Below are positions 21,484 through 43,735 of a stretch of DNA of 64,000 nucleotides, piece after piece; the stretch's first letter is position 1, and each line of letters starts with the position of its first letter. Origin of the DNA: Gammaproteobacteria bacterium (lineage in GTDB: Bacteria; Pseudomonadota; Gammaproteobacteria; CBDBNL01; JAAOII01). The stretch lies in NCBI GenBank assembly GCA_965209035.1, contig OZ242372.1:160001-224000 (forward strand). Reading direction: 5' to 3'. The notes beneath the pieces are model-generated. The model worked only from the letters and a program-made list of their open reading frames with translations. It had not been told where the DNA came from and did no database searches. Made by a program: the position numbers and the translations under genes.

Positions 21484-24400
21484 CTACCTGCCTTGCGCCG
21501 AAATGCCACCCGGCATGCAGTTCAAAGCCGGGTATTGGGAACTCTCGCCCAGATCCCAGACGCGGACAAAGCCGATCGGTTGGGAAGTACTTTCCGTTTC
21601 CTCGCCGGTGTTTGGATTGCACCAGAAGTTACCCCAGAGAGCATAGATCCCTGTGAAAGAAGCACCTTGTAGTTGAACCGTGCTTTGCCCATCACCGCCG
21701 GCACCGGTTGATTGCCCGGTGGTTTCAGTATCCCAATAGGAAGCATTGACAGTGATTTGCGCATCGGCAATGCCAATCAAGCCGCCGATATCACCACCGG
21801 AACCTAAAACAAACCCGGCGGCAACATAAGAATAATAAATTTGACTGTCTTGCCCGCCTCCAATACCAACCAGCCCACCAACTTCATCATCGCCGGCAAC
21901 ACTTCCGCCGAGCACATAAGCATAGCGAATGTCAGACCTATATCCATCCCCAACCAGTCCGCCAACCTCATCACCGCCGGCAACACTTCCGCCGAACACA
22001 TAAGCATAGCGAATATCAACCTCTCGCCCCTTCCCAACCAGCCCACCAACTTCATCATCGCCGGCAACACTTCCGCCGAGCACATAAGAATAGCGAATAT
22101 CAGCACCCTCGCCATCCCCAACCAGTCCGCCAACGGTAACATTGCCGGAAACATCTCCGCCGGACACATACGCATAGTGAATATCAGCACCCTCGCCATC
22201 CCCAACCAGTCCGCCAACAGCAACATCACCGGATACATTTACGCCGGATACATTGGCATAGATAATACTGGCATTCGCACCAGACCCAACCAGCCCGCCA
22301 ACTTCATCACCGCCGGCAACACTTCCGCCGAACACATAAGCATAGCGAATATCAGCATCCTCGCCATCCCCAACCAGCCCGCCGACATTGCCGGCAGACG
22401 GACTCATCACACTGCCACCGGTAACCGACAGATTCTCATAACCGGCATTCCTGCCATTGCCTACCAGTGTGCCCACATCATTGGCACCACCGCTGACACG
22501 CGCATTCCGGAGATGCAAATTTTGAAGACTACCATTGAACGCGCCAAATAATCCCACTCCGATCGCATCATGATGCGCAGAAACAAACAGATCGGCAATC
22601 GTGTGATCCCGGCCATCAAACACACCCGTATAAGCGGTGCAAACATTATTTGATGTACAGAAGCCAATCGGCACCCATCCGCTGCCATCACGATCCGTCC
22701 AAGTAGATTGCTTGCCGCTGTTCTCCCCATTAGACCCATAAGATGCCACCAGACTAAAATTCAACGAGCGGGTCAATTCGTAACCCAAACAGCCGGAACT
22801 CGGACAACCTGCAGAACCCACGGCGGTAATCTCGTCAGTACGGTTATCATCCGCCCCATCGCCATTCAGATCATCGCGCAGGCGCGCCAAGTCATCCAGA
22901 GTGCGGATTTCTATCAAGCCATTATTGTCATCGTCCGAGTCCGCCATCAAGTCTGTTTGACAACCGGCAACCACGCTATCCGGATTACCGTCTTGATCCG
23001 TATCGGTGCTCGCACAGGCATCCCGAGGAAACGCATCTGTCGTATCGGGGACATGATCATTGTCATCGTCCGTATCTTCGCCCGCATCCCGACAGCCGTC
23101 TTTGTCATTGTCCGTCGTCCGATTGGATCTCCAATCCGTTTCGCCGGGATCGCAGGCATCCTCTCCGTTGAGCACACGATCGCCATCATCGTCCGGCAAC
23201 CCATCCAAAACACCCGCCATTCCCGTATCGCCTTCATAGAATAAGTTGACACCCGTTGCCTCATTGGCACTCAATACCGTCGCCTCGTCGCGATCTTGAA
23301 TTTGAATATCCACCCAGGCAAGATAATTGCATTGCTCAAACTCCGGTCTTGTCCCTAAAATACCTCCGCTACATGCACCCGAAACAGGCGGATTCGTCCG
23401 GGCAACTTGACCAAAAAAAAGACTCTTGCGATCATACCGCTCCGGCACATCGCCCAAAATACCGGTTGTCACATCCGTATAGTCATCCGACAAGCCGGTC
23501 AGAGATACCCGGACGCTACAGTAATAACGACTCCTTGCCTCAAAATCTACTTCCTCCTCGGAACCCAACAAAATTCGATAGCCCTGATTATCCAAATAAA
23601 ATCGGCGGGAACAGTAAGCACTATTATCCGTTCTGTTGAATCCGGACTGCAAACGAAAGTAAAGAGTCGGCGGCCTGTCCAAACCCGCCTGTGCCCGCAT
23701 GGCTGCCGAAAGATCTGTTTGGATACCCAAGGTACGAAGAACATTGCCGGCGCCGGAAACCACAGAATACGGTGGCGCATTTTCATTCAACATACCTACG
23801 AGTTCATAATGATGACGCCGGCGTTCCACTATCCTTTCTTCCGTTTGCAACACCTCACGCTGATAGAAAAATGGAAACGCAAACCTTATCGACTCCAAAT
23901 CCGCGCCGAACCCGCTCTTTGCCGCAGGATCTAAATTGAAAATATCCTCCGGTGCCGAGGTCACATTCGGATGAGTCACCAAGAAATGCCGCAAGGATCC
24001 TTCCCGGGTATGAATGTCATCAAAAAGTTCCCGAGACATCCCCTTAGCCGCTCGATAGGTCAACGACAGATTGCGATGATTTACTCCGTTTTCTGTCAAC
24101 CGCAATAGGATCGAGATATTTAAGGCCTGATTTAGCCGAAAGATTCTGTTTTCGCCCATGCCCTCGCTGTCCCAAAAATCTGTCTGAAAAATAGCTTCTG
24201 TGGGATAAACAACTGAGCGAGCATTATCTCTAAACAGCGAATAAAGTAACGGATCTTTCTTTGATAGCGAAAAGAACGAAAACATTAGAGGAAACCCTAG
24301 TTCCACCCTTCCCTCAAAAGTGCGGTTATTCGTCTCAACAACCACTGTCACCCGTTCTGTCCCGGCCCTTGTAAACCCATTAAATATGACAAAATCCTCC

Positions 24401-24960
24401 GTTTCCAAGGCACGCGCTGCCGCGGAAATACGCACCGGTACAGATACGGAAGCCCAATGTCGCCGCTCACCGTCCCTGTCCAAATACGAAATATCCGCCG
24501 CCACCTCAAACTCGCGCACACCGAGTACACGCACCACATGACCCAAACTGAAATCTTGTGCCCCATCGCTCTTAAACAATAACCTGCCGGAAGACGCATT
24601 CACTTCAAAAAAGGTCGCCACCAATTCGTTATCTCCCGGCAGCAAGCGATAGGTTACCGTCACATTCCCGGCACCTTGCGGCAGGCGGGCACGCACCTCT
24701 TCGTTTTCCAGCCGGACCACGCCCATGGTTCTGTTTCGTGACGATGCCGCCGTTGTTGTCGTATTGGCCAAAGCAAAATGATAGGCAGCATGCGAAAATA
24801 AATTGCGTGCCGGCCCACCGCCGGAAGAGTAAGAAGGCACGCATGCCGAAAGCGAGAACAACGATGCAAAAAAAGTAAACAAAATTGCCAAGCGTCGCAC
24901 GAAGACGGCACTGCGCCCGGATATGATGTATGCTCCGATGCTCGCCATCCGGTCCATCAT
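21484..24960 (-). CDS. Giant surface lipoprotein A1: conserved N-region, TSP3-like repeats, GLUG module
   Basis: The frame is open to 25239, but homology to paralogs and overlap with the upstream gene favour a start near MMDRMASIG (24960). Lipobox SLSA-C; cadherin-like FEVNASSGRL..DF; VGGLVG repeats. Confidence 0.8.
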   Translation of the reverse strand: MMDRMASIGAYIISGRSAVFVRRLAILFTFFASLFSLSACVPSYSSGGGPARNLFSHAAYHFALANTTTTAASSRNRTMGVVRLENEEVRARLPQGAGNVTVTYRLLPGDNELVATFFEVNASSGRLLFKSDGAQDFSLGHVVRVLGVREFEVAADISYLDRDGERRHWASVSVPVRISAAARALETEDFVIFNGFTRAGTERVTVVVETNNRTFEGRVELGFPLMFSFFSLSKKDPLLYSLFRDNARSVVYPTEAIFQTDFWDSEGMGENRIFRLNQALNISILLRLTENGVNHRNLSLTYRAAKGMSRELFDDIHTREGSLRHFLVTHPNVTSAPEDIFNLDPAAKSGFGADLESIRFAFPFFYQREVLQTEERIVERRRHHYELVGMLNENAPPYSVVSGAGNVLRTLGIQTDLSAAMRAQAGLDRPPTLYFRLQSGFNRTDNSAYCSRRFYLDNQGYRILLGSEEEVDFEARSRYYCSVRVSLTGLSDDYTDVTTGILGDVPERYDRKSLFFGQVARTNPPVSGACSGGILGTRPEFEQCNYLAWVDIQIQDRDEATVLSANEATGVNLFYEGDTGMAGVLDGLPDDDGDRVLNGEDACDPGETDWRSNRTTDNDKDGCRDAGEDTDDDNDHVPDTTDAFPRDACASTDTDQDGNPDSVVAGCQTDLMADSDDDNNGLIEIRTLDDLARLRDDLNGDGADDNRTDEITAVGSAGCPSSGCLGYELTRSLNFSLVASYGSNGENSGKQSTWTDRDGSGWVPIGFCTSNNVCTAYTGVFDGRDHTIADLFVSAHHDAIGVGLFGAFNGSLQNLHLRNARVSGGANDVGTLVGNGRNAGYENLSVTGGSVMSPSAGNVGGLVGDGEDADIRYAYVFGGSVAGGDEVGGLVGSGANASIIYANVSGVNVSGDVAVGGLVGDGEGADIHYAYVSGGDVSGNVTVGGLVGDGEGADIRYSYVLGGSVAGDDEVGGLVGKGREVDIRYAYVFGGSVAGGDEVGGLVGDGYRSDIRYAYVLGGSVAGDDEVGGLVGIGGGQDSQIYYSYVAAGFVLGSGGDIGGLIGIADAQITVNASYWDTETTGQSTGAGGDGQSTVQLQGASFTGIYALWGNFWCNPNTGEETESTSQPIGFVRVWDLGESSQYPALNCMPGGISAQGR

Positions 24961-25036
24961 CGGCAGCAACACTCGACTTGTCTTGTACCTACTCAAAAAT
25001 ATCCGATGGAATAAGATGCCGGGACGGCACAATGTC

Positions 25037-26668
25037 CTAAAAACGATATGCGAGAGCAAGGCGCAAGTTTGTGGCGGAGAAGGAGGTCCGGAACACTTCC
25101 GTATTCGCATCATCTTCTTGGTCAATCGCCTCATCGACCAGATCGGTATCATTGATATATTCAAGAACATCCAAAGATACCGCCGCCGTGAGCCCAAAGT
25201 CGCTTTGGTATTGGTAATACAAGGTTGTGCCCCGGGCAAAACCTACTCCTCCCAAAGCCCAGCCAACCCGATGCCGCAGTTGCTCGCCCATATTGCCCGC
25301 AATATGCAAAGCGGGAAAACACTCAAGGGCGAAGTTCATCGTATCACCGGTAGCTGCCGCATAGAGCGCATAGCCGCGATAGTTCTTTTCATCAAAATAA
25401 GAGGCCCCGCAAAGATAATTAAAATTAACGATCCGCTTATCCGAGTAATAATCAAAACCGACACTATAGATATCACCTATAATTTCCAAATAGGCTTTAC
25501 CGTCATTCTCATTGGCAACCCAGTTCAGATAGTCAATTGTTTGTGAATAAAACTGACTCGTCCCGGGGGAGAACTCTCTACCGCCCGATTCCCGATCCAA
25601 GACATTATAATCATCCAAAGAAAAGGTGCGCGCCCATTCAAACTTAACGGCATACCTCTTGATGGGAACCGAAAGTTCAAAACCGTATGCTGTGTTCGGA
25701 CTAAAAGTTGGCGACGGCCTGGCGACAGGCAACCGTTCATCCGTATTAATACTCCGAATACAGCCTTCAATCGTTGCTCTCACTGCTCCGCCGCGACACA
25801 CATAGTCGCCGTTGCGACGCAACAGTTCGAACTGCGCGATTGGAAATCTATAGCCCTCGTAATAGGTGAAACCGGCAGTCAGCCGGGAACCCACATATAA
25901 AACGCGCACCGCTTGTTGTGAAGGATCTTTCGGTGCGGCAAATTTTACCGTTTGATCTTCGTTGTGTTCGTTTGCATATTCCACATTGCCGGTAAACTCG
26001 CCCAACAATTGATCGACCAACAGTTGCGGAAAATAATAATAATGCACTTCCAGACCACCCGGTATAAAAAATTGGGCGGATGCCACATATTGCGGCAGGC
26101 GATTATCCACCTTACTGTAACTGAGTGTTGTGCTGCTAAAATCTATGGGCAGTACCAGATCTACGGGCGAAAAGAGATCAAACTGACCGAACACCACGCG
26201 TTTGCGGCCCAGAGAAAACAGGGCATAATTCGCATCCAAGTCCACATAGCCTTCCAGTAGTTCCACATTGTCCGCCGTCACTGTGCGACTAAATGTTTCT
26301 CCTTCATTAGTATTGATATTCTCGGATCGCAAACTGAACTTGACCGCGGAACGATAGGCACGACCTTCCAGGGCAACCTTCCCCCAACTCCAATCCTCGT
26401 CATAACGCAGCCTGGCTTGGGTACTCGCACGCGTGTTAACCTCATCAATGATACCGGCATAGGTCGCAACCAGAATGCCACTAAAATGCCGCTGCCAATA
26501 ATCCGCTGTGCCGGGGCTGTCTGTGCCGGTTGAAAGATCCGTGCCGTCCTCTTCTTCTATGATGACCGGAGCACTTTCAATCACGGTTGCATTCTCAGCG
26601 GCAAGAGCTAAAACAGAGAACAGACATAGTCCGCATAGTCCGCAAAAAATAAGACATTTTAGTTTCAC
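25037..26668 (-). CDS. Predicted outer-membrane beta-barrel protein, copy 1
   Basis: Signal peptide ending VLALA, amphipathic strands, LEGYVD..LGRKRVVFG..SPVD motif and C-terminal LALAYRF (BAM-type signal). GTG start chosen by homology with copy 2. Confidence 0.8.
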   Translation of the reverse strand: MKLKCLIFCGLCGLCLFSVLALAAENATVIESAPVIIEEEDGTDLSTGTDSPGTADYWQRHFSGILVATYAGIIDEVNTRASTQARLRYDEDWSWGKVALEGRAYRSAVKFSLRSENINTNEGETFSRTVTADNVELLEGYVDLDANYALFSLGRKRVVFGQFDLFSPVDLVLPIDFSSTTLSYSKVDNRLPQYVASAQFFIPGGLEVHYYYFPQLLVDQLLGEFTGNVEYANEHNEDQTVKFAAPKDPSQQAVRVLYVGSRLTAGFTYYEGYRFPIAQFELLRRNGDYVCRGGAVRATIEGCIRSINTDERLPVARPSPTFSPNTAYGFELSVPIKRYAVKFEWARTFSLDDYNVLDRESGGREFSPGTSQFYSQTIDYLNWVANENDGKAYLEIIGDIYSVGFDYYSDKRIVNFNYLCGASYFDEKNYRGYALYAAATGDTMNFALECFPALHIAGNMGEQLRHRVGWALGGVGFARGTTLYYQYQSDFGLTAAVSLDVLEYINDTDLVDEAIDQEDDANTEVFRTSFSATNLRLALAYRF

Positions 26669-26730
26669 GAACCGCCCGGACCCCGAAAGCATCTGATGGC
26701 AACTTTATGATGATTCGTTTTGAATTTCAT
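26665..26730 (-). other. 21-codon mini-ORF: 5' remnant of a gene-B-like gene whose TGA overlaps the barrel GTG
   Basis: GAGGTGATGAT-ATG then MKFKTNHHKVAIRCFRGPGGS*. RBS and first codons match 51211 (MKSKINNYKIAR). Confidence 0.65.
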
Positions 26731-26872
26731 ATCATCACCTCTTTTAAAAAATAAATTAAATTTATTCTATTGTAAAGGGAAAAGATCGATGTATAAAAAA
26801 TATGGTTCGCTCGCCTTCGGCAAGAACTCCTTAGTTTTTTAACATCTCTTGAAATTAACAAGAGGCATCGTC

Positions 26873-29800
26873 TCAGCGCGGTCTCAGCCACCTGCCGGCT
26901 GTGTCACGGCGACCATAAATCACATACACCCTGTTGCCACCGGGGCCCGGTGCACCCACCGCAAAATCCCGAACCCGATCACCGTTGAGATCACCCACAC
27001 CCGCAACCGCATACCCAAGACCCTGCGAGAACATACCGCCGCGCGTCGATACGACAAATCCTTGGGAGGCATTAAAGTGTTGCAGATCCAACAAACGCCG
27101 CGCGGTCACCGGATCCAACACGCCGTAGCCCACATCCCGTCGACCATAAATCACATACAAACGACCTTGCCCATCCGCATATTCGGAAGCACCCACCGCA
27201 AAATCGTTCGTGCCATCACCGTTAATATCGCCGAGATTCGCAACCGAAACGCCCAAACGGCTATTGGTCTCCTCCCCGCGCACAATAAAACCGGCTGCCG
27301 ACGCCAGGGTCGCCGGTGCCAACACCGACCGATGGATGCCGTTTCTTGCCGTCCGACGCCCATGACTGCGGTTGCCATAAATCACATACAACAGACCTTC
27401 GCGCACGCGCCTACTGTCACCCCCATCGTAACCGGCACGCGCAGCCGAAACGGCAAAATCCGCCGTGCCATCACCGTTAATGTCGCCAAGACCCGTGATG
27501 ACTTCCCCCGCATGATCACCGGCTTGTGTTGATTCTATGACGAACCCCGCGGACGCGGACAGAGTTTCTGTTCGCAGAATCCGCGTTGCTGTGCCCGCCG
27601 CCGGATTGTTCGCCAAAGAGCCATGAAGTGAGCCATGAAGTGAGCCATGAGATCCCCCTTCACGCCCGTAAATCACATACACCCGGGTTGTTCTGTTCGC
27701 AATTCCCCCCGCAGGCACATTGTGAACCGCACCGCTGCTGACGGCAAAGTCGTCCGTGCCATCGCCGTTGATATCACCCACACCCGCAACGAATGCCCCC
27801 AAGTGCTCTCCGACCACATTCCCATTTTCCACCGCAGTATCTCCGAAAAGAATAAACCCGTGCGACCGGTTGAAGTCCGCCGCATTAAGCCGTTCACGCC
27901 CGCCGGCCAACATTCCATAATGGCCATCCTTGCGCCCGTAAAAAACATACAATCGACCCGCATTGGAAGGCGGATCCGTCATATTCGCATTAAAGCCGGA
28001 CGGCGCGGAAATCGCAAAATCCGGCACACCATCACCGTTGATATCGCCAATGCCCGCCACAGCCGCCCCGAGCCCATCACCGCCGGCCGGCGAAACTCCG
28101 CCATGCATTGTAAATCCGTGCGATTGATTAAAGTCTTGTAAATTTAACGCACGACGGCCACGGGCACTGCCCCGACCACCGAAATCCCCCTCCCGACGCC
28201 CGTAAACCACATAGGCATCACCGGAGTTGCTTCCGTTTGTATCGGCATGCCGAACACCCATCACAAAATCACTGACATTGTCCCCATTAATGTCGCCGAC
28301 CCCGGCAAGCAACCGCCCGGATGCGTCGCCCAAGCGATCCGCCTTTTGACCGCCAAAAAAGACCACACCCGCAGCCGGCGCAAGACTCCCGCCGTTAATC
28401 ACCCGCACCCCCGTTTGCGGATCCGGCATCCCGTATGCATCGTCACCACGGCCGAACAAGACAGATACCTCGCCGCGTGCTTGGCCGGCAGCAAAACCCA
28501 GACCTTGATCGGCATTCGGTGCACCAAGCGCAAAGTCGTCCCGACCATCGCCATTGACATCACCCACGGCGGCGATGCTGCTTCCCAACCGGTCCTTGTC
28601 GGCGTCCCGGCGCCACATCGATGCGACAACCGCAGGATCCGGCTCAACAGCACTGCCGTTGATGATGAACCCTTCCGCCGGCAAAAAAGTTCCCGTGTCA
28701 ATGACAAATCGCCGCAGATCACAGGCATCGCCCACTCCGTCCGCATCATTGTCGTCTTGCCGCGCATTTGGAAAATACACACAATTGTCCGTCAGATCCG
28801 GCTCCCCATCGTTGTCGTCATCCTTGTCTTCGCCCGCATCCCGACAGCCATCACCGTCATTGTCCGTCGTCCGGTTGGATATCCAACCCGTTTCGCCGCG
28901 CGGACAAGCATCCAATGGAGTGTTCCCGTCGGTGGCAAGATCATTCACACCGTCATTGTCATCGTCCGGATCCTCGGCACCATCGTCCCGACAGCCCTCA
29001 CCGTCATTGTCCGTCGTCCGATTGGATCTCCAACCCGTTTCGCCGGGATCGCAGGCATCCTCTCCGTTGAGCACACGATCGCCATCATCGTCCGGCAACC
29101 CATCCAAAACACCCGCCATTCCCGTATCGCCTTCATAGAATAAGTTGACACCCGTCGCCTCATCAATCCGCGATACCGGCGGCTCGTTGCGATCTCTAAT
29201 ATAAATATCCACCCAGGCAAGATAATTGCATTGCTCAAACTCGGGTGCCCTCCCGGAAATTCTGTCGGTACATGTACGCGGAACAGACGGGATCGTCCGG
29301 GCAACTTGACCGGAGAAACGACTCGTGCGATCATATCGCTCCGGCGAATCACCCAAAATACCGGTTGTCACATCCGTATAGTCATCCGACAAGCCGGTCA
29401 GAGATACCTGGACGCTACAGTAATCACGACTCCTTGCCTCAAAATCTGCTTCCTCCTCGGAACCCAACAAAATCCGATAGCCCTGATTATCCAAATAAAA
29501 TCGGCGGGAACAGTAAGCACTATTATCCGTTCTGTCGAATCCGGACTGCAAACGAAAGTAAAGAGTCGGCAGCCTGTCCAAACCCGTCTGTGCCCGCATG
29601 GCTGCCGAAAGACCGGTTTGGATACCCAAAGTATTAAGAAGATGACCGATTCCGGAAACTACAGAACGCGGCGGAGAATTTTCATCCAACCTGCCAATGA
29701 GTTGGTAACGATGACGCCGACTTTCCACCGTTCTTTCCTCTTCTTGCCCCACCTCACGCTGATAGAAAAATGGAAACGCAAACCCTATCGCCTCCAAGTC

Positions 29801-30922
29801 CGCACCGAACCCACTCTTTGCCGAAGTATTCAAATTGAAAATATCCTCCGGTGCCGAAGTAACATCCGGATGGGTCGCCCAAAAATGCCGCAAGGACCCT
29901 TCCCGGGTATGCACATCATCCAGAAGTTCCTGATACATCCCCTTAGCCGCCGGATAGGTCAGCGACAGATTACGATGATTTTTCCCATCTTTTGTCAACA
30001 ACAACAGAACCGAGATATTTAATGCTTGATTCAGTCGAGAGGTTATGTTTTCGCCCATACCCTCGCTGTCCCAAAGATCCGGATAAGAAATTATCTCTGC
30101 AGGATCAACGACTGATCGGGCATTACTTATAAACAGTGTAGAAAATAACGGATGTTTATTTGATTGCAACAAGAACGTAAATGTTCGGTGAAGTCCTAGT
30201 TTCACTCTCCCTTCAAAAGAGCGATTATTCGCATCAATAAGAACTGTCACCCGCACTGTCCCAGGATCCGCATACCCTTGAAATATGACAAAATCCTCCG
30301 TTTCCAAAGCACGTGCTGCCGCGGAAATACGCACCGGTACAGATACGGAAGCCCAATGTCGCCGCTCACCGCCCGTGTTCAAATACGAAATATCCGCCGC
30401 TACCTCAAACTCGCGCACGCCGAGTACACGCACCACATGACCCAAACTGAAATCTTGTGCCCTATCGCTCTTAAACAATAACCTGCCGGAAGACGCATTC
30501 ACTTCAAAAAAGGCCGTCACCAATTCGTTATCCCCCGGCAGCAAGCGATAGGTTACTGTCACATTCCCGGCATCTTGCGGCAGGCGGGCACGCATCTCTT
30601 CGCTTTCCAGCCGGACCATGCCCATGGTTCTGTTTCGTGACGATGCCGCCGTTGTTGTCGTATTGACCAAAGCAAAATGATAGGCAGCATGCGAAAACAA
30701 ATTGCGTGCCGGTCCGCTACCGCCGGAAGAGTAAGAAGGCACACATGCCGAAAGCGAGAACAACGATGCAAAAAAAGTAAACAAAATTGCCAAGCGTCGC
30801 ACGAAGACGGCACTGCACCCGGATATGATGTATGCTCCGATGCTCGCCATCCGGTCCATCATCGTCGGCAACACTTGACCCGTCTTTCGCCCATTCAAAA
30901 ATATCAAAAATATATCTTGCAA
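26873..30922 (-). CDS. Giant surface lipoprotein A2: conserved N-region, TSP3-like repeats, integrin-alpha-like FG-GAP repeats
   Basis: Lipobox SLSA-C; seven GD[I/V/L]NGD..DF[A/V]..YV.[Y/F]G units consistent with a beta-propeller. Confidence 0.85.
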   Translation of the reverse strand: MQDIFLIFLNGRKTGQVLPTMMDRMASIGAYIISGCSAVFVRRLAILFTFFASLFSLSACVPSYSSGGSGPARNLFSHAAYHFALVNTTTTAASSRNRTMGMVRLESEEMRARLPQDAGNVTVTYRLLPGDNELVTAFFEVNASSGRLLFKSDRAQDFSLGHVVRVLGVREFEVAADISYLNTGGERRHWASVSVPVRISAAARALETEDFVIFQGYADPGTVRVTVLIDANNRSFEGRVKLGLHRTFTFLLQSNKHPLFSTLFISNARSVVDPAEIISYPDLWDSEGMGENITSRLNQALNISVLLLLTKDGKNHRNLSLTYPAAKGMYQELLDDVHTREGSLRHFWATHPDVTSAPEDIFNLNTSAKSGFGADLEAIGFAFPFFYQREVGQEEERTVESRRHRYQLIGRLDENSPPRSVVSGIGHLLNTLGIQTGLSAAMRAQTGLDRLPTLYFRLQSGFDRTDNSAYCSRRFYLDNQGYRILLGSEEEADFEARSRDYCSVQVSLTGLSDDYTDVTTGILGDSPERYDRTSRFSGQVARTIPSVPRTCTDRISGRAPEFEQCNYLAWVDIYIRDRNEPPVSRIDEATGVNLFYEGDTGMAGVLDGLPDDDGDRVLNGEDACDPGETGWRSNRTTDNDGEGCRDDGAEDPDDDNDGVNDLATDGNTPLDACPRGETGWISNRTTDNDGDGCRDAGEDKDDDNDGEPDLTDNCVYFPNARQDDNDADGVGDACDLRRFVIDTGTFLPAEGFIINGSAVEPDPAVVASMWRRDADKDRLGSSIAAVGDVNGDGRDDFALGAPNADQGLGFAAGQARGEVSVLFGRGDDAYGMPDPQTGVRVINGGSLAPAAGVVFFGGQKADRLGDASGRLLAGVGDINGDNVSDFVMGVRHADTNGSNSGDAYVVYGRREGDFGGRGSARGRRALNLQDFNQSHGFTMHGGVSPAGGDGLGAAVAGIGDINGDGVPDFAISAPSGFNANMTDPPSNAGRLYVFYGRKDGHYGMLAGGRERLNAADFNRSHGFILFGDTAVENGNVVGEHLGAFVAGVGDINGDGTDDFAVSSGAVHNVPAGGIANRTTRVYVIYGREGGSHGSLHGSLHGSLANNPAAGTATRILRTETLSASAGFVIESTQAGDHAGEVITGLGDINGDGTADFAVSAARAGYDGGDSRRVREGLLYVIYGNRSHGRRTARNGIHRSVLAPATLASAAGFIVRGEETNSRLGVSVANLGDINGDGTNDFAVGASEYADGQGRLYVIYGRRDVGYGVLDPVTARRLLDLQHFNASQGFVVSTRGGMFSQGLGYAVAGVGDLNGDRVRDFAVGAPGPGGNRVYVIYGRRDTAGRWLRPR

Positions 30923-30950
30923 GATTCAATATTGAGGCGGCGGCGATGTC

Positions 30951-32594
30951 CTAAAAACGATATGCGAGAGCAAAACGCAGGTTTGAGAGGGAGAAGGTAG
31001 TCCGTTCCACTTCCGTATTCGCATCTTCTTCTTGGCCGATCGCCTCATCGGCAAGTTCCGTATCATTGATATATTCAAGGGCATCCAAAGATACCGACGC
31101 AGTTAACCCGAAGTTACTTCGGTATTGGTAATACAAACTTGTTCCCCGGGCAAAACCTACTCCTCCCAAAGCCCAGCCAACCCGATGCCGCAGTTGCTCG
31201 CCCACATTGCCCCCAATATGCAACGCGGGAGCACAGTCAAGAATGAAGTTATTGTTATCTTCCTCAGTAGCTGCCGCATAGAGTTCATAGCCGCGATAAT
31301 TCTTTTCATCAAAAAAAGAAACCCCACAAAAATAATTAAAATTAACAATCAGTTTGTCCGAGTAATAATCAAAACCAACGCTATAGATATCTTGTATCCT
31401 TTCCAAATATGCTTTACCGTCATTCTCATTGGCGACCCAGTTCAGATAATCAAGCGTTTGTGAATAAAACTGACTCGTCCCGGGGAAGAAAGATCTCCCA
31501 CCCGATTCCCTCTCCAATACATTATAATCATCCAAAGAAAAGATGCGCACCCATTCCAATTTAAGAGAATATCTCTTGATCGGAACCGAAAGTTCAAACC
31601 CGTATGCTTTCAGAGGGCTAAAAGTTGGCTCCGGTTCGGCGACAGGCAATCGTTCATCCGTATTAACATTCGCAGTACATCCCTCAATGGTTGCACTCAC
31701 CGCTCCGCCACGGCATACATAACCGCCGTCGCGACGCAACAGTTCAGACTGCGAGATAGGAAAACCATAACCCTCGTAATAGGTGAGACCGGCAATCAGC
31801 CGGGAACCCACATATAAAACACGCACCGCCTGCTGTGAAGAATCTTTCGGCGCGGCGAATCTTGCCGTTTGGTCTTCGTTGTGTTCGTTTGTATATTCAA
31901 CATTACCGCTAAATTCGCCCAGCAGTTGATCGGATAAAAGTTGCGGAAAATAATAATAATGAACCTCCAAACCGCCCGGTATAAAAAATTGAGCGGATGC
32001 AACATACTGCGGCAGGCGATTATCTACCTTGCTGTAACTGAGTGTTGTGCCGCTAAAGTCTATGGGCAGCACCAGATCTACGGGCGAAAAGAGATCAAAC
32101 TGACCGAACACCACCCGTTTGCGGCCCAGAGAAAACAGGGCATAATTCGCATCCAAGTCCACATAGCCTTCCAGTAGTTCCACATTGTCCGCTGTCACTG
32201 TGCGACTAAATGTGTTTCTTTCACGAGTATTGAGATTCTCGGATTCCAAACTAAACTTGACCGCGGAACGATAGGCGCGGCCTTCCATGGCAACCTTACC
32301 CCAACTCCAATCCTCGTCATAACGCAGCCTGGCTTGGGTACTCGCGCGTGTGTTATCCTCATTAAGGACACCGCTATAGGTCGCAAACAAAAGACCGCTA
32401 AAATGACGCTGCCAATAATCCGCTGTGCCGGGGCTGCCGGGACCGTCTGTATCCGTTGAAAGATCCGTGTCGTCCTCTTCTTCTATGATGACCGGAGGAT
32501 TCTCAATAACGGTTGCATTCTCAGCGGCAAGAGCTAAAACAGAGAACAGGCACAGTCCGCATAGTCCACAAAAGATGAGGCATTTTAGTTTCAC
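30951..32594 (-). CDS. Predicted outer-membrane beta-barrel protein, copy 2
   Basis: Paralog of 25037..26668; ends FALAYRF. Confidence 0.82.
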   Translation of the reverse strand: MKLKCLIFCGLCGLCLFSVLALAAENATVIENPPVIIEEEDDTDLSTDTDGPGSPGTADYWQRHFSGLLFATYSGVLNEDNTRASTQARLRYDEDWSWGKVAMEGRAYRSAVKFSLESENLNTRERNTFSRTVTADNVELLEGYVDLDANYALFSLGRKRVVFGQFDLFSPVDLVLPIDFSGTTLSYSKVDNRLPQYVASAQFFIPGGLEVHYYYFPQLLSDQLLGEFSGNVEYTNEHNEDQTARFAAPKDSSQQAVRVLYVGSRLIAGLTYYEGYGFPISQSELLRRDGGYVCRGGAVSATIEGCTANVNTDERLPVAEPEPTFSPLKAYGFELSVPIKRYSLKLEWVRIFSLDDYNVLERESGGRSFFPGTSQFYSQTLDYLNWVANENDGKAYLERIQDIYSVGFDYYSDKLIVNFNYFCGVSFFDEKNYRGYELYAAATEEDNNNFILDCAPALHIGGNVGEQLRHRVGWALGGVGFARGTSLYYQYRSNFGLTASVSLDALEYINDTELADEAIGQEEDANTEVERTTFSLSNLRFALAYRF

Positions 32595-32727
32595 GAACCG
32601 CCCGGATCGAGATTCGGCAGACCTATGAGGGTCGGCGTAAAAAATTTTTCATTAACAGACAAAAAGATCATCGGACGGATAAAGCATGACACGGGTCTCT
32701 TATTAGGTATTGGACGGCGGCGATGTC

Positions 32728-32891
32728 CTAAAAACGATATGCAAAAGAAAGACGCAGATTGGCGATGGATATGGAAGCCCGTTCCACGCGTCTGGTCGGA
32801 TCTTTTTGTTGCTCTTCCTCTTCCAAATCGGTGAAAACAAGGTAATCATTGAAATATTCAAGGACATCCAAAGAAACTGCCGTGGTTAACC
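32728..32891 (-). pseudogene. 3'-terminal fragment of a fourth, divergent beta-barrel allele
   Basis: LTTAVSLDVLEYFND...ANLRLSFAYRF aligns with the last ~53 aa of the barrels and keeps the taggacatcgccgccg flank; no 5' part. Confidence 0.8.
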
Positions 32892-33135
32892 TGCATAGTC
32901 TCATAAAGGTTCTGGACTCTGAGTTTGGCATTGTGCGTCATCAGATCAAGCAGCCGGAGGTTCTGTCGGACGGGTCGAAAATAGATCCGGCAACAGGTCT
33001 CCGGTATGTGGAGCTAGATGAATGAAACGGGCAAGAAAGACGGTGAGCTGTTTTGCTCTCACCGACGCAGACAGCGGCGGCTTGTTGTTGTCAAAACTTT
33101 GAAGTTGATGCTTTTGAATAAGAAAGGTGTTGCCA

Positions 33136-33512
33136 TGCAAGTACTAATTGCCGCGGAGCATTCTCCTCTCGATATGACAGCTCTTGGTCGGGAAACATTG
33201 GAGGAAAGTGGCATTAAAAAATATGTTGACGGCCGTTGGGAAGAATGGAGTCAGAAATTGCATGTACTCAACCTATCCAAAAAGCATACGAGGGACCTTT
33301 ACGAGATTTAAGAAGAAATTTTTTCTTTTGTGGAAGCAAACATTTCCGAGAAAGAAGATCTTGCGTCAATGATAGAATAAATCGGTTCCTTATCCAATCT
33401 GCGCTTTCTGGCGCGCCTGTATGCCCGCAACAAATTTTTTAAAGAAAACAATTGGATGATTAAAGAAATAGACAAATATAATCCATCAAAAAATAAACCC
33501 GCCAAGGAGTAA
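33136..33512 (+). pseudogene. Pseudogene of the C-terminal domain of the coiled-coil family at 1-1923
   Basis: SPLDMTALGRETLEESG..DLYEI*EEIFSFVEANIS..MIE*IGS..LARLYARNKFFKENNWMIKEIDKY aligns with SPLNMTDIGEAILESSG..LAGLYLRNQFFKENHWDINDIDKY. In-frame TAA at 33309 and 33378. Confidence 0.8.
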
Positions 33513-33526
33513 AGCATCCCGTTGCG

Positions 33527-33919
33527 CTACTTGAGCGGGAACTTATAATCAAAAAACAGGAACTCCGCTTCCAACTCGGCAAAAAAGGATTCCGCAGGGT
33601 GCACTTGATATTGTTTGAACAGGCGAAGACGATAGTCTTTTTCACCGTCCCGAATTTGTAAAAACAACGGCAATCCTGTATTACCGACGCGCTTGGTTAC
33701 CAGGTTCTGTAACTTCTTAACCGAAGAACTGTTTGCATATTGCGCCTCCGTGTGTAAGAAAATGCAATCGCAATTTGCTGTCCGTAAAGCCGCCAGACTG
33801 AACACAATCTCCACATCAAACCCAGTTCTCTCCGAATTGCGAAAACCGGACAGCTTTCCTTTTAGAGCAATCAGATTGCCTTCTTTGAGAATCCAATCAT
33901 CGGTCTTGGCATAGATGTC
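33527..33919 (-). pseudogene. C-terminal fragment resembling DNA polymerase III alpha subunit (end of OB-fold plus C-terminal domain)
   Basis: Open frame DIYAKTDDWILKEGNLIALKGKLS...RLRLFKQYQVHPAESFFAELE resembles the DnaE tail (e.g. [20 protein letters not shown]). An in-frame stop lies immediately upstream. Confidence 0.55.
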
Positions 33920-33972
33920 TTATTCCTTTCCATTCCATCCCGTCCCGGCTGTCTTGCCTGTCCGCTCTACCT

Positions 33973-36900
33973 CTACCTGCCTTGCGCCGAAAGACCACCC
34001 GGCATGCAGTTCAAAGCCGGGTATTGGGAACTCTCGCCCAGATCCCAGACGCGGACAAAGCCGATCGGTTGGGAAGTACTTTCCGTTTCCTCGCCGGTGT
34101 TTGGATTGCACCAGAAGTTGCCCCAGAGGGCATAGATCCCTGTGAAAGAAGCACCTTGTAGTTGAACCGTGCTTTGCCCATCACCACCGGCACTGGTTAA
34201 TTGCCCGGTGGTTTCAGTATCCCAATAGGAAGCATTGACAGTGATTTGCGCATCGGCAATGCCAATCAAGCCGCCGATATCACCACCGGAACCTAAAACA
34301 AACCCGGCGGCAACATAAGAATAATAAATTTGACCGTCTTGCCCGCCTCCAATACCAACCAGCCCACCAACTTCATCATCGCCGGCAACACTTCCGCCGA
34401 GCACATAAGCATAGCGAATGTCAGACCTATATCCATCCCCAACCAGTCCGCCAACGGTAACATTGCCGGAAACATCTACGCCGGATACATAAGCATAGCG
34501 AATATCAACCTCTCGCCCCTTCCCAACCAGCCCACCAACATTATCAAACTTCCCGGAAACATTTACACCGGACACATAAGCATAGCGAATATCAACCTCT
34601 CGCCCCTTCCCAACCAGTCCGCCAACGGTAACATTGCCGGAAACATCTCCGCCGGACACAGATGCATAGCGAATATCAGCCCTTGCTGCTTCTCCAACCA
34701 GTCCGCCGACATTGCCGGCAGACGGACTCATCACACTGCCACCGGTAACCGACAGATTCTCATAACCGGCATTCCTGCCATTGCCTACCAGTGTGCCCAC
34801 ATCATTGGCACCACCGCTGACACGCGCATTCCGGAGATGCAAATTTTGAAGACTACCATTGAACGCGCCAAATAATCCCACTCCGATCGCATCATGATGC
34901 GCAGAAACAAACAGATCGGCAATCGTGTGATCCCGGCCATCAAACACACCCGTATAAGCGGTGCAAACATTATTTGATGTACAGAAGCCAATCGGCACCC
35001 AGCCACTGCCATCACGATCCGTCCAGGTAGATTGCTTGCCGCTATTTTCCCCATTAGACCCATAAGATGCCGCCAGACTAAAATTCAACGAGCGAGTCAA
35101 TTCGTAACCCAAACAGCCGGAACTCGGACAACCCGCGGAACCCACGGCGGTAATCTCGTCAGTACGGTTATCATCCGCCCCATCGCCATTCAGATCATCG
35201 CGCAGGCGCGCCAAGTCATCCAGAGTGCGGATTTCTATCAAGCCATTATTGTCATCGTCCGGATCCTCATCGGCATCCCGACAGCCATCACCGTCATGGT
35301 CCGTCGTCCGATTGGATCTCCAACCCGTTTCGCCGCGCGGACAAGCATCCAATTGAGTTCCGTCGGTAGCAAGATCATTCACACCGTCATTGTCATCGTC
35401 CGTGGTCGTCGCCGAAATACGCACCGTGACACGCGCTGTCGCGGTCACTCGCGACGCTTGGAAGTCCTCAAATACCACATCAAACTCGACACTGCCACCG
35501 TCGCCCCTATTCAATTCGGTATAAAGTTCCGGACTCATTCGCAAATCCAACGGCAATTCCACACGCAACTCGTTCGTACCCGCAACCGGAGTGAAGGTAA
35601 TCCCGGTGGGATTCAAAGTTAAATGATGCGCAATATTTGTCGTGGAACGGCCATTGTTGAGTGTCAGCCGGTGGTTTCTCAACATGCGCACGGTCGGATG
35701 CGCGTTCGGCTCAAAACTCAGATCTGCATCATGCACAAACACCATCGCCGACCGGCGCACGGTCCCGGTTGCAGCCAACGCGGATGTGCCAAAATCCTCT
35801 TGCAAACGATAGGCCGCCCCCCGGCGCACACTGCCCGGCGCACAGGGCGCGCCGCCACCGGACGGACAAACAAGCAATCGATCGTTCTCGCTCCGCACCG
35901 AAAACATCTTCGCAATCACCGGCTGCGCGGCATAAGTGAAATTCCTATCCGTAAAACCGCGCGGCTCCGTTTCCGTCAACTCCAAATTAAAAGTTGCTAC
36001 TCCAAACGAATCCGGCTGATGCCTATAACCGCCTTGCGTCACAAGCACTTCGGCCGAACTGCCGTTTTGGGACAATGCCGTCGCCCGAGACGGCATGCCG
36101 ATAAAGATCCGCGGCGACGCAGGAACGAGCACCGCACGCGTCCCCGTCAGCAGCAACTGCTGCCGCACCGGCTCTAAAAAATCGGCATCCCGCACCACAA
36201 ACTGAAAGTTAAACAAACCCGCCAAATCGGGATGATTTTCATCAATTGCGGCCCGCCGATCGCTTCCGATAAAAACATTGCTCGCCGAACGGTTCGCAAC
36301 CAACAACAAAGGACCCGGAACCGCCGGCACCCGATTCGCCACCGGATTCACTCGTATCCGATAATACTCCACAACCGGTGCGTGCGGATACATCGCATCG
36401 CCATCAACGAACTCGCGCAGCGTGACCTGAATCACCGCCTCACCGTGCAGATTGCGCGCCATCTGAAACCCATGACCCGTCGAATTATGACGCACCTGAC
36501 CGGACCCCAAACTCACCCGGTGCACCGCATCGGCGGCAACACCCAAGCGAATCAACTCACTGCCGGTGGCAAAGCCACTTTGCAAGTTAAATTTCGGAAC
36601 ATCCGCCGCCGCACTCGCATTGGCAATCACCTCCAAGTGAATCTCTGTCCGCTGCGCACCGTCCGATGCATCCGCCGCATCCGGATTCACCACCGTGAAA
36701 CTTAAAATCTCACTCAGGTTGTTCACCGCCAACGCAAACTGATTCGCATCAACATCCGTCACCGTCTCGTTTGAAAGAAAAACATCTCCCAGCGACAACG
36801 ACGATACAAACGCCGGCTCATTCAGATTCGCCCTATTCACCCGCACATTCATCTGACCTAACGCACGCCGACTCGCATCGGTTCTATTCTCCCCCTCTCC

Positions 36901-39900
36901 CTCCCCAACGAACACTTCCACAAAATAACTCAACGTCTCCGCCGGCCGATTCAAACTCAACGACAAGGTGTCCAAAGCCGGGTAGACCGCACCCGCAATC
37001 ACCGCATCGGCACCCGCACTGACATTACGCACCGGATAAAACTTCGGCCGCAGCACCAGTGCCGTAACCGGCGCAGCATCCGCACCCACCCGATAACTCG
37101 CATTGAACTCCCACTCAAAGTAATCCTCAAAATACGCGCCCGCCACCGTCAGCCGACCCGCAGAATCCAAACGAGACACACGCACCGCCGATACATTTAC
37201 AGCCGGCCCGCTCAAACGAAAACCAACAGCACGACCATCGACCGCAACCAACGCTGCCCCATCGCCATCCATCAAGCCAGTCTGTTCGTCCGACCGCCGC
37301 GCCACCGCCGTCAAATCACCGGACGGACCCCGCAGCAATCGCGCCGGGTAACAACGACCATCCACCCGAACAGCCGGCACATCCGGCACCGCTGACACTT
37401 CCCCGCCGGCGCATGCCGCCCCGGCCAACTCCTTCTCATAGGCACTCTGCTCATACAACAGAGTATAGGCCGCCGGCCGCAACACGCGACCTTCGCGATC
37501 CGCAAACGCCAACGCTTCCGCAGCCGGCGGCGCCAACACTTCTACCCGCACCTGAGTCGTTACCGAATGTTCCGCAGCCGCCGCCACCGTATCCGACGGA
37601 TCCCGCAACAGAATAGGCAAGCCCAGCACATCCCCCAGAAAATTGCGCTCAATCAAACGTCCTTCGTCCAACCGTAAATCCACACCAACCCCGCCCACAC
37701 TCGGCACGAGCGCAAACAAACCAAACAATTCTTCGCGATGCAACCGCTCGCCAAACACCGACTCCTCAAAGGTCACCGGCCGAACCACTGCCTCCACATC
37801 TGCCAAACGTACATCCGTCCCCGGAAAAAACTCGTCATAATCCGGCTGCAAGGCCGCAACATCAAACATTCCCTCAAGCAAAATACCCAACCCCGGGCTT
37901 GCTATCGCGTCCAGTCCCAATTGTTCGCTGATCCGCACCACGCCCAAATCCGGAACAACCGGCCGATACACCACATCCTCCACCCGAATCGCAAACGAAA
38001 CCGACTCGGACGCCAAACCCGTCCCGTTCTCCCATACACGCACCGTCACCGTAAACAAACGACCATCACCGGCATTCTCCAAAGCCGCCGCATCCGCCAC
38101 ATTTAACCGATAGTAAAACGCATCCTCGCCGGCCGATGTAAACACCAAATCCAACGCATCACGCAAGGAAGCCGGCTCCGTCTCTAAACTCACTCTCGGC
38201 CGCGCCACCGACAAGCGGCTCTCCGGATCATCCAAATGCACATACAGACCTTCTATCAAACCCAAGCCGCGATCTTCCGGCAACAACAATTCGGACTGCA
38301 ATAGGACGCTCGCCGCCGCATCGCGCGTCACATTCACCGCAATCGCTTCGTTCATATTCGCAACCTCAACCGCTAAGTCCAATTCCGCAGACAAACGCAC
38401 GCTGCCAGCCAACGGAAGCATCTCACTGCCGGTTGCCAACGGCAGAACCCGATAGACGCCACCGTCCGTCCAACGCTGCGTCGCCGTCAGAGTCGCATCC
38501 GCTTCATAGTCCGGCGATACCGCCAACGAAACCGCATAGGGAGTTAGCCACTCACCGCTCACCGCATCGCGCGACGGCTCACCCAAAGATGCCAATACAA
38601 ACCCGCCATCACTGTCATTGGTTGCCACAAACACACTCTCCGCCGGCGGACGATTGTCATCGCGTAACATAAAAGTTGCCAGACGCGTCCCCGCCGCCGT
38701 GTTCTCCGGCAGGCGAGCTAACACCGCAGCGGTACCGGCGCCGACACTCGGCCGCACATCTACATCGCCTCCCGGCACCGAAGCCGCACGCAACGCCGTA
38801 ATGCGCGGCGCCGCATTTCGATCCGCAACCACAACTCGCACCAACGCATAGTCACTGTGCAAATACCCGGAATCTTCCGCCGCCTCACGCGCATCATCGG
38901 TCACACGCACCAAGAGGGTGTAAACAGACTGCACACCGAAATTTACCATCACACCTTCCCGCAGAGACAAGGCACCATTCGCCGCATTCAACTCAAACGC
39001 TTCCGCATCCGCCCGGCGGAAACGCTCGCCGCCAAACACCGCATTTAATGCCGCCGCCCGCGCCGCATCCGTCCGACCGATGAAGCCGATGAACTCTCGC
39101 AACTCCGCCGCCGCCATCAAGTCATATACCAAAGTATTCCCCGCCGCCACGGAAGCCGCCGACTGGGTTGTCCATGCCGACAACAACAGAGGCGCCGGCG
39201 GCGATACCGGCCGCAAGGTCGTCTCATCCGCCGCAAGCACCGCAACACCGACGGCATCCCCCTCCGCCACCGAACCCAACAACAGACCCCGTTCAAAAGA
39301 TGCCGGCAGCTCGCCCAAATCAAAAGCATCATCCGCTGTTGTCACTTCCGCAGCCACCCGCGTCTGCACCGTCACATTCGCCGCCGCCTGCGGACTACCC
39401 TCACGATAAGCCGTCACCCGAATACCAAAATCATACGGCAAGTCCGACAGACCCGGCATGCCCGGAACATACGCCGACAGCACGCGCAAATCCAAACCGC
39501 CCAAACGCAACTCCGAACCCGATACCTCAAACTGACGGCCAATCCGCGCCGCCAAACCGGACGCCACCGACGACGACAAGGCACTTGTCACAGCCGGATG
39601 CAAGATCACTCCCCCATACCGAAAGGTAATCTCCGTCCCACGACCGCTCTCCGGATCCAAACCCGTTAAACGACCCAACACAGGACCGCCATTGGCAACA
39701 AACTGTGCAAAACTCGGCAACAGAACCTGTGTCTCCGCCAAACCATCGCCCGCAGGCAACCGTTCCGAAACATTTCCACCCGAACTGCGCATATACGCAA
39801 GATTCGTCGGGGCATAAGCCAAATCCCGCACTTCCAAATCCAATGTCTGCCGCGTCTCCAACGCAGATGTACTATTATCCCGCACACTCAATGTAATCCG

Positions 39901-42040: not shown

Positions 42041-43684
42041 CTAAAAACGATATGCGATAACAAAACGCAGGTTTGAGAGGAAGAAGGTAGTCCGTTCCAC
42101 TTCCGTATTCGCATCATCTTCTTCGCTTATCGCCTCATCGGCAAGTTCCGTATCATTGATATATTCAAGGGCATCCAAAGATACCGACGCAGTTAACCCG
42201 AAGTTACTTCGGTATTGGTAATACAAACTTGTTCCCCGGGCAAAACCTACTCCTCCCAAAGCCCAGCCAACCCGATGCCGCAGTTGCTCGCCCACATTGC
42301 CCCCAATATGCAACGCGGGAGCACAGTCAAGGATGAAGTTATTGTTGTCTTCCTCAGTGGCTGCCGCATAGAGTTCATAGCCGCGATAATTCTTTTCATC
42401 AAAAAAAGAAACCCCACAAAAATAATTAAAATTAACAATCAGTTTGTCCGAGTAATAATCAAAACCGGCGCTATAGATATCTTGTATCCTTTCCAAATAT
42501 GCTTTACCGTCATTCTCATTGGCAACCCAGTTCAGATAGTCAATGGTTTGTGAATAAAATTGATTCACTCCGAATGAGAAAGGTCTCCCGGCATCTTCTC
42601 TCTCAAATACCTCAAAATCATTCAAGGAAAATGTCCGCAACCATTCAAATTTAAGGGAATATCTCTTGATCGGAACCGAAAGTTCAAACCCGTATGCTCT
42701 CACCGGGCTAAAAGTTGGCTCCGGTTCGGCGACAGGCAATCGTTCATCGGTATTAATACTCCGAAGACAACCCTCAATGGTTGCTCTCACCGCTCCGCCG
42801 CGACACACATAACCGCCGTCGCGACGCAACAGTTCAAACTGCGAGATAGGAAAACCATAGCCCTCGTAATAGGTGAGACCGGCGATCAGCCGGGAACCCA
42901 CATATAAAACACGCACTGCTTGTTGTGAAGAATCTTTCGGTGCGGAGAATCTTGCAGTTTGGTCTTCGTTGTGTTCGTTTGCATATTCCACATTGCCACT
43001 AAATTCACCCAACAATTGATCGACCAGCAGTTGCGGAAAATAATAATAATGAATTTCCAGACCGCCCGGTATAAAAAATTGAGCGGATGCAACATACTGC
43101 GGCAGGCGATTATCTACCTTGCTGTAACTGAGTGTTGTGCCGCTAAAGTCTATGGGCAGCACCAGATCTACGGGCGAAAAGAGATCAAACTGACCGAACA
43201 CCACCCGTTTGCGGCCCAGAGAAAACAGGGCATAATTCGCATCCAAGTCCACATAGCCTTCCAGTAGTTCCACATTGTCCGCTGTCACTGTGCGACTAAA
43301 TGTGTTTCTTTCACGAGTATTGAGATTCTCGGATTCCAAACTAAACTTGACCGCGGAACGATAGGCGCGGCCTTCCATGGCAACCTTACCCCAACTCCAA
43401 TCCTCGTCATAACGCAGCCTGGCTTGGGTACTCGCGCGTGTGTTATCCTCATTAAGGACACCGCTATAGGTCGCAAACAAAAGACCGCTAAAATGACGCT
43501 GCCAATAATCCGCTGTGCCGGGGCTGCCGGGACCGTCTGTATCCGTTGAAAGATCCGTGTCGTCCTCTTCTTCTATGATGACCGGAGGATTCTCAATAAC
43601 GGTTGCATTCTCAGCGGCAAGAGCTAAAACAGAGAACAGGCACAGTCCGCATAGTCCACAAAAGATGAGGCATTTTAGTTTCAC
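42041..43684 (-). CDS. Predicted outer-membrane beta-barrel protein, copy 3
   Basis: N-terminal ~200 codons match copy 2; ends FVIAYRF. The frame is open to 43732; GTG start chosen by homology. Confidence 0.82.
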   Translation of the reverse strand: MKLKCLIFCGLCGLCLFSVLALAAENATVIENPPVIIEEEDDTDLSTDTDGPGSPGTADYWQRHFSGLLFATYSGVLNEDNTRASTQARLRYDEDWSWGKVAMEGRAYRSAVKFSLESENLNTRERNTFSRTVTADNVELLEGYVDLDANYALFSLGRKRVVFGQFDLFSPVDLVLPIDFSGTTLSYSKVDNRLPQYVASAQFFIPGGLEIHYYYFPQLLVDQLLGEFSGNVEYANEHNEDQTARFSAPKDSSQQAVRVLYVGSRLIAGLTYYEGYGFPISQFELLRRDGGYVCRGGAVRATIEGCLRSINTDERLPVAEPEPTFSPVRAYGFELSVPIKRYSLKFEWLRTFSLNDFEVFEREDAGRPFSFGVNQFYSQTIDYLNWVANENDGKAYLERIQDIYSAGFDYYSDKLIVNFNYFCGVSFFDEKNYRGYELYAAATEEDNNNFILDCAPALHIGGNVGEQLRHRVGWALGGVGFARGTSLYYQYRSNFGLTASVSLDALEYINDTELADEAISEEDDANTEVERTTFFLSNLRFVIAYRF

Positions 43685-43735
43685 GAACCGCCCGGATCGA
43701 GATTCGGCAGACCTATGAGCACAGACTGCCACAGA

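Follow-up and report, generated by a model that had tools for sequence, protein, structure and literature searches.

How do neighbouring genes that encode nearly the same N-terminal part come to end in unrelated domains? This question is raised by a stretch of 64,000 nucleotides from the genome of a Gammaproteobacteria bacterium (assembly GCA_965209035.1, contig OZ242372.1; G000:C1:160001-224000), which we call the window and in which three adhesin-like genes, A1, A2 and A3, share modules across an aspartate-rich, TSP3-like repeat stalk. The genome under study, G000, comprises 2.24 Mb in 2 contigs with zero N and is 93% complete; G001-G005 are its relatives. On the minus strand, the gene order is A4, B3, A3, a scar, B2, A2, B1 and A1 (Table 1). 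A B gene and the N-terminal part of the next A gene form a 3.5-kb unit, and the three copies of this unit are 85.5-91% identical. A lipobox-like LSAC or FSAC motif is present in A1-A3, which are predicted to be lipoproteins.

We propose a two-step origin of these genes, to which we give a probability of roughly 0.65: rare microhomology grafts would have attached the stalk to foreign modules, and RecA-type ectopic recombination would then have reassorted the modules on both of its sides. This account connects the observed block edges, mosaic pattern, outgroup architecture, family size and position of the stalk before 87 of 94 heads through a mechanism that we infer.

Module edges in the stalks of A1, A2 and A3

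The joint common to A1 and A2 (23256-23104 vs 29155-29003) is 153 bp long with a sole mismatch at 23135, and beyond it A1 continues into a GLUG-like beta-helix and A2 into an FG-GAP propeller. This joint is the end part of a 3.65-kb block that is 87% identical (23057-26680 vs 28953-32606) and spans the entire N-module plus the upstream B gene. A2 and A3 have a repeat unit in common (28806-28968 vs 35243-35402), which is 87.7% identical over 163 bp and has unlike sequence on both flanks. The C-terminal modules of A1 and A3 are ~98% identical in two blocks, one of 558 bp (22937-22380) with 9 mismatches and one of 491 bp (21966-21476) with 8; the beta-helix rungs between these blocks are unlike, A1 being two rungs longer, and 399 of the 484 columns of the aligned head proteins are identical. 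These three similarities had been described in an initial annotation of this DNA, and all of them were recovered at the places given there. The homologous 3′ flank of A1 and A3 reported with them was also found, but it extends just ~55 bp past the stop and is gapped (block end 21429): identity is 77% over 73 bp when the last codons are counted, and gapless identity stops 8 bp after the stop.

All edges between unlike modules in A1-A3 lie in or at the Asp-rich stalk. The 10-mer CGGACGATGA has seven copies in A1-A3, six of which are exact block edges (23195, 29094, 28968, 35402, 22937 and 35261) and the seventh of which (23072) is a unit boundary; two other block edges (23104 and ~28810/35250) fall at other D-N-D motifs of the stalk. 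Breakpoint mapping thus bears out the earlier claim that the module switches fall in the Asp-rich repeats, except that the switch between A3 and A1/A2 (40182/23193/29092), which was absent from the initial list, has a repeat only on the A1/A2 side.

When 120-bp windows of the A2 stalk were compared with 85 family genes, the best donor passed from A1 (0.99) to A3 (0.88) and then to the FG-GAP paralog at C1:2148116 (0.78-0.79), and the stretches of likeness to A3 and to the paralog overlap inside a single repeat unit (~28905-28806). Judged from its sequence, the A2 stalk is a three-way mosaic, in which a crossover to the FG-GAP lineage inside a repeat unit would have moved an unrelated tip. This crossover would be old, because DNA identity over the tip is only 69%.

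The last stalk unit of A2 resembles the thrombospondin type 3 repeat (PF02412, TSP_3) and matches the structures of COMP (3fby) and TSP-2 (2rhp) with E 1e-10. It is the sole match to this Pfam family, at 23.7 bits against a curated cut-off of 25. The A1 and A3 stalks matched no Pfam family, and the R- and S-type units that bear the switches are unlike PF02412 in that they, too, have no Pfam match. Because the A2 unit falls below the cut-off and the other stalks have no match, the wording "TSP3-like" chosen at the outset is apt. The A2 tip matches integrin-alpha structures, and a sequence comparison of the A1 stalk and head with solved structures gave no match. From its motifs, the stalk is likely to be a Ca2+-binding, tolerant linker.

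The 13-mer CGGACGATGACAA has 129 copies in the genome, of which 128 are in family genes, and synonymous codons are shared at stalk unit boundaries at 82-93%. Head motifs are about as codon-uniform, and the stalk DNA motif is not retained in the G001 stretches that were read (2 copies in 67 kb). For these two reasons, lineage-specific homogenisation fits better than a recombinase site. Examined as a site-specific crossover site of the shufflon type, CGGACGATGA stands at six edges here, other edges lie elsewhere in the unit, and the head motifs are equally homogeneous; the loss of the motif in the relatives' stretches, this uniformity and the absence of a nearby recombinase make it unlikely that the 10-mer is a recombinase site.

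RecA is present in G000. The one match to the tyrosine recombinase family PF00589 (C1:2117491) is far from the locus, no recombinase was found adjacent to the locus, and neither a reverse transcriptase (PF00078) nor a serine recombinase (PF00239) was matched in this 93% complete genome. Exchange is likely to proceed through ordinary recombination among ~85 related genes, with no dedicated cassette system. Loss of mismatch repair was considered as a cause and ruled out by the presence of MutS and MutL.

Proposed ancestral architecture and stalk-edge grafts

According to outgroups and parsimony, the A3 N-module followed by the cadherin-like chain would be the ancestral form. Among 21 non-self database homologs, 14 span A3 residue 610, and all 14 go on in cadherin-like sequence; the remaining seven fall short of this residue or match weakly. 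Two G000 paralogs pass residue 610 without a stalk, and the G002 and G003 orthologs align over residues 41-1867 unbroken. Eight of the spanning homologs, including the G000 paralog P0018, extend to A3 residue 2204, and all of these lack a stalk at that point (3-8 Asp in the following 60 residues vs 16 in A3). The profile of the cadherin-like family matches protocadherin structures (E 3e-10). The limits of the A3 domains rest on alignment; a fold of A3 residues 60-699 predicted from 4 sequences had a predicted local distance difference test score of 36 and was set aside.

A1 and A2 break off ~30 residues into a cadherin-like repeat that is kept in 15 of 15 aligned homologs, and the ends of the 4.78 kb missing from them have a 3-bp CGG overlap. 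The stalk and head of A3 also appear to have been grafted onto a stalk-less partner, because the eight homologs that reach residue 2204 continue in cadherin-like sequence. In a third graft (G000:C1:41131), an N-terminus of fn3 and stalk is fused to a subtilase that is 79% identical to its stalk-less neighbour. Since the partners lack the repeat at these positions, repeat homology on both parents cannot explain the three stalk-edge grafts.

The third graft belongs to the pair at G000:C1:38787-43956, where a subtilase lipoprotein lies beside the 79%-identical neighbour that gained the fn3 and stalk N-terminus; on sequence grounds, we regard this pair as a clear instance of the capture of a new tip, located at the 3′ edge of a stalk. 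A giant cadherin-like paralog of A3 (G000:C1:2090612-2103416) is interrupted near a copy of a 207-bp repeat (2092977-2093186).

In the proposed order of events, a giant cadherin-like lipoprotein would have gained a stalk and head at an inter-domain linker (A3), and the B+A unit would then have been duplicated in tandem. One copy would have lost 4.78 kb of the cadherin-like chain, from the interior of a repeat to the stalk, via the CGG overlap (the ancestor of A1 and A2). A crossover within a repeat unit would have supplied A2 with the FG-GAP tip of a distant paralog's lineage, and the three units would have gone on exchanging patches over their whole length. After grafting, unlike modules would reassort through the stalk and like modules could exchange anywhere. 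In our view, three properties enable the stalk to act as a joint: no other sequence is common to the unlike modules, the unit boundaries of the stalk are homogenised at the DNA level, and it probably forms a tolerant linker that binds Ca2+; the survival of joins in such a linker probably contributes. To judge from the sequences, the outcome is likely a varied set of surface-displayed binding tips.

Exchange beyond the stalks and competing explanations

In G000, 94 heads occur in 78 open reading frames (ORFs) that cover 10.3% of the genome length, and 87 of these heads directly follow a stalk. The family consists of ~85 genes, and 85 were used in the scans. Stalks also precede FG-GAP, subtilase and Ig-like plus ephrin-like tips, which with the beta-helix makes at least four kinds of tip.

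Exchange is general and abundant in the repeat-free DNA of the locus. In the repeat-free B+N unit, 611 informative sites fall into 226 runs, compared with 382 after shuffling (0/10000), and segmentation yields 15-24 segments vs 2.7-6.9; B2 and B3 share an identical tract of 659 bp. Two heuristics of our own were applied genome-wide. The first was limited to paralog tracts that include ≥150 bp outside repeats, and ends near gene termini were dropped: at ≥88% identity, 77 of 237 tract ends lie in stalks vs 54.5 expected (1.4x; 1/5000 draws), 46 in rungs and 114 in non-repeat parts. In the second, donors switched at rates of 0.37-0.41 over stalks, compared with 0.26-0.28 over rungs and 0.11-0.24 over repeat-free spans. 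Five per-gene paired tests, uncorrected and with non-independent genes, gave p values of 0.012 (short spans), 0.37 with the opposite sign (medium spans), 0.085 (pooled), 0.068 and 0.068. The stalk is thus a mild hotspot and no programmed site. The initial proposal that the repeats provide the homology for domain shuffling holds for the A2 tip switch, which lies within a repeat unit, and for the modest genome-wide excess in stalks; it does not hold for the first grafts, which had stalk-less partners, for the heavily mosaic repeat-free unit, or for the two thirds of tract ends that lie outside stalks.

Several points weigh against the two-step origin. Part of the coincidence between edges and stalk is forced, because two unlike modules can part only where their shared sequence ends. 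Among younger tracts, the excess in stalks does not reach significance (23 of 75 ends vs 19.7 expected at ≥92% identity, 1069/5000 draws; 4 of 17 vs 4.6 at ≥95%). The first stalk unit of A1 and A2 is unlike the A3 unit in its 5′ half, so a later change must be assumed, and the CGG overlap could be due to chance. Exchange between copies that are 80-90% identical should be hindered, because MutS and MutL are present in G000. Instead of being paralogs within one cell, the donors may be alleles from related strains, and the proposed sequence of steps is derived from outgroups and parsimony in one strain.

A wider version of the proposal, which we put forward tentatively, is that the stalk is a genome-wide plug-in socket: animal-type or enzymatic domains would be captured once and then moved among ~85 surface lipoproteins with no dedicated recombinase. 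If this is true, the homogeneity of the unit boundary, where one 13-mer recurs 128 times in family genes, would provide this bacterium, which is likely host-associated, with a combinatorial display library that includes an integrin-like propeller, a cadherin chain, an ephrin-like domain and a subtilase among its captured domains.

It is doubtful that the stalk is a privileged joint, selected for recombination, and that tip exchange there is the main route by which the family diversifies. The placing of every unlike-module edge of A1-A3 at the stalk, the variety of tips after stalks, the elevated donor-switch rates and the shared codons at unit boundaries are as this explanation predicts. Nevertheless, 160 of the 237 tract ends lie outside stalks, the paired tests disagree in sign and strength, head motifs are as codon-uniform as the stalk motif, which is scarce in G001, and few stalks carry tips other than the heads.

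We find it improbable that breakpoints are evenly distributed and that the joins seen at stalks are simply those that leave both flanking domains folded. The excess in older tracts and its absence from the youngest agree with such a selection filter, and so do the three stalk-edge grafts, because repeat-less partners mean that repeat homology is not needed. On the other hand, the A1/A2 graft cuts into a cadherin-like repeat and survived, and the A2 tip switch lies where both parents have homologous repeat units.

The chimeras might also be assembly artefacts of a repeat-rich locus, which the initial annotation had named as a reason to give up its reading. In contigs from three short-read runs of one sample, possibly the source sample, the A1-specific joint (22908-23133) was recovered with 0 differences, in one piece in two of the three runs, as were the A2 stalk-to-FG-GAP join (26594-28911) and the A3 N-module-to-insert join (35374-40401), all at single-copy-like depth. 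No single piece spans the locus, and these contigs cannot phase the identical 122-bp and 659-bp blocks; just 26-27 letters cross the A3 insert-to-stalk join and the A1 contig extends 30 letters into shared sequence on each side, against a threshold of 31, and one contig over the A1 graft has one differing letter. With the joins matched in this way, 2 contigs without N, all three frames open and copies that differ by 9-15% over 3.5 kb, an artefact is highly unlikely. Alternative combinations of N-module and tip were not found in other samples, the stretch being present in one sample only. In a raw-read run of a different study, 11 of 30 bins were covered, and these in repeats only, so we conclude that the organism is not in that run. 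Of 50 candidate joints, the 15 listed had a short side of 21-33 letters at 90% likeness and fit paralogs; they were not used.

Known systems, the wider family and neighbouring genes

The assembly of mosaic surface proteins is seldom visible, and this locus preserves parents, grafts and an in-repeat crossover at base resolution. In yeast FLO adhesins, ectopic recombination across the central repeats gives rise to new domain combinations, and a second kind of event takes place outside these repeats, at microhomologies, according to the part of the source available (PMC3512402). As in that account, the genes studied here encode paralogous surface proteins with a repeat spacer, both kinds of event are present, chimeric paralogs have statistical support (the runs test, segmentation and donor scan), and breakpoints occur across and outside repeats. 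Unlike the FLO adhesins described there, these are bacterial lipoproteins with an Asp-rich TSP3-like stalk and a C-terminal tip, and the tips exchanged have unrelated folds instead of being allelic versions of a single domain. In the accessible portion of a report on ligand-binding-region swaps in RTX adhesins (10.1101/2025.09.30.679566), near-identical bodies carry a swapped distal region with cadherin- or Ig-like extenders, which resembles the present case; unlike those adhesins, our proteins show no RTX beta-roll or type I secretion signal, have a lipobox-like motif and belong to a family of ~85 genes in one genome.

The initial annotation had likened the locus to C-terminal exchange in polymorphic toxins. 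As far as the available text on MafB, CdiA and Rhs goes (PMC4287609), a conserved N-part, a variable C-module and recombinational exchange are common to both, and A1 and A2 have a similar N-module with unrelated tips. The likeness ends there, because no toxin domain, immunity gene or downstream C-terminal cassette array was found. A Pfam search of the tips gave only FG-GAP and weak Glug matches; no immunity gene was found downstream, in a scan that included no dedicated immunity library; and no stand-alone C-terminal cassettes occur at the locus, where A1-A4 are full-length. A2 is followed by the conserved B1, A3 by the repeat scar, and A1 by ~530 bp and then an unrelated 287-aa ORF. By comparison with these systems, we conclude that the locus appears to function like FLO ectopic recombination and RTX distal swaps and that a polymorphic toxin system is ruled out. 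A literature search limited to titles and abstract openings found no report of TSP3-like repeats as recombination joints, and TSP3 and GLUG are unmentioned in the accessible part of PMC12153261. Because ectopic recombination between paralogs is well known, the value of this case lies in a worked example and its scale, a tenth of the genome, rather than in a new machine. What the locus adds is the analysis of the unlike-tip switch and of the grafts, and a testable rule: any domain that has been grafted onto the stalk can be exchanged throughout the family.

The family is expanded in four of the five relatives searched. The FG-GAP tip was found in none of G001-G005 with the query used, a metagenome scan with the N-module alignment gave no match, and an Atlas search with the N-module gave no usable one. 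Among named genomes, the best 74 loci for the head module include metagenome-assembled genomes (MAGs) titled Gammaproteobacteria, Ca. Porisulfidus, Oxydemutatoraceae, Spirochaetia, Chloroflexota and others. Several of these MAGs are, we assume, sponge symbionts, and a host-associated life of the bacterium is only likely. For sponge-associated genomes, the portion of PMC8163846 available describes an enrichment of cadherin and fibronectin domains, with a proposed role in attachment.

The lipobox pattern occurs in 70 of the 85 family ORFs; by eye, 7 of the other 15 are lipobox-like, 5 have an out-of-frame leader and 3 are truncated. The 8 ORFs of the last two kinds are dispersed in the genome and not arrayed at the locus. 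The out-of-frame lipobox/Gly-rich leaders (G000:C1:48527, 1185604, 1471302, 1575242 and 1579965) may reflect slipped-strand phase variation or assembly error. One family gene (G000:C1:724565-732760) has a stalk of ~2015 residues. Ig-like domains follow the stalk at G000:C1:1464866-1467130 and 1241887-1244766; the former has a terminal ephrin-like domain (Pfam E 6e-5, under the cut-off), and the two genes are 41% identical over the tip.

Table 1. Features of the locus, in positions of the window.
Feature	Positions	Strand	Remarks
A1, predicted lipoprotein: N-module, truncated cadherin-like repeat, Asp-rich stalk, GLUG-like beta-helix head	21484..24960	-	Open frame from 25239; probable start 24960
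A1 head	21484..22935	-	Two blocks ~98% identical to A3, rungs between them unlike; Glug match at E 6e-4, narrowly below cut-off
A1 stalk, one R-type and one S-type unit	22936..23195	-	Both ends and internal unit boundary (23072) begin with CGGACGATGA
A1 copy of A1/A2 joint	23104..23256	-	152/153 bp identical to 29003-29155
B1, DUF1302-like predicted outer-membrane protein	25037..26692	-	Co-duplicated with A gene; no Pfam match
A2: N-module as in A1, stalk, FG-GAP (integrin-alpha-like) propeller	26873..30862	-	Open frame from 30922
A2 FG-GAP module	26873..28720	-	61% protein, 69% DNA identity to G000:C1:2148116-2150842
A2 stalk: A1-like unit, A3-like unit (28968-28806), unit like FG-GAP paralog G000:C1:2148116 (from ~28905)	28712..29094	-	Donor scan
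B2	30951..32594	-	Shares 659 identical bp with B3 at the 5′ end
Scar between A3 and B2	32708..33918	-	Tail of further B-like gene (32708-32891), 207-bp dispersed repeat (32891-33098), 836-bp repeated segment (33083-33918)
A3: N-module, cadherin-like repeat chain, one-unit stalk, head	33973..41940	-	Open frame from 42012; N-terminal architecture putatively ancestral
A3 head	33973..35259	-	
A3 stalk, one R-type unit	35260..35402	-	Putatively grafted at inter-domain linker
A3 cadherin-like chain	35401..40278	-	A1 and A2 lack 40181-35401
B3	42041..43732	-	
A4, lipoprotein: three stalk and head units, different GLUG/M26-like tail	43736..51211	-	Same family, N-terminus unlike

B2 resembles DUF1302 outer-membrane clusters (Atlas score 0.97) and has no Pfam match, and a scan of genome contigs with the B protein gave no match. 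The closest paralog of the B genes (58-61%) lies in a LolA-like/B/MMPL operon directly downstream of a family gene (G000:C1:499722-504932), an arrangement that also occurs near family genes in G001. This operon is the probable source of the B genes, and the B gene may be a co-duplicated passenger rather than a dedicated partner of A. The B-like gene tail in the scar is interrupted by the 207-bp repeat, which has >20 near-full copies in the genome at 90-95% identity, and the 836-bp segment recurs at C1:2065973-2066808. Within this segment, directly after A3, there is a startless open frame of 130 codons on the minus strand (33520-33918). Elsewhere in the window, a 1-kb direct repeat with 92% identity occupies positions 1-2059, and short repeats (7504-7845 and 10450-10611) flank the family gene A0 (8177-10345).

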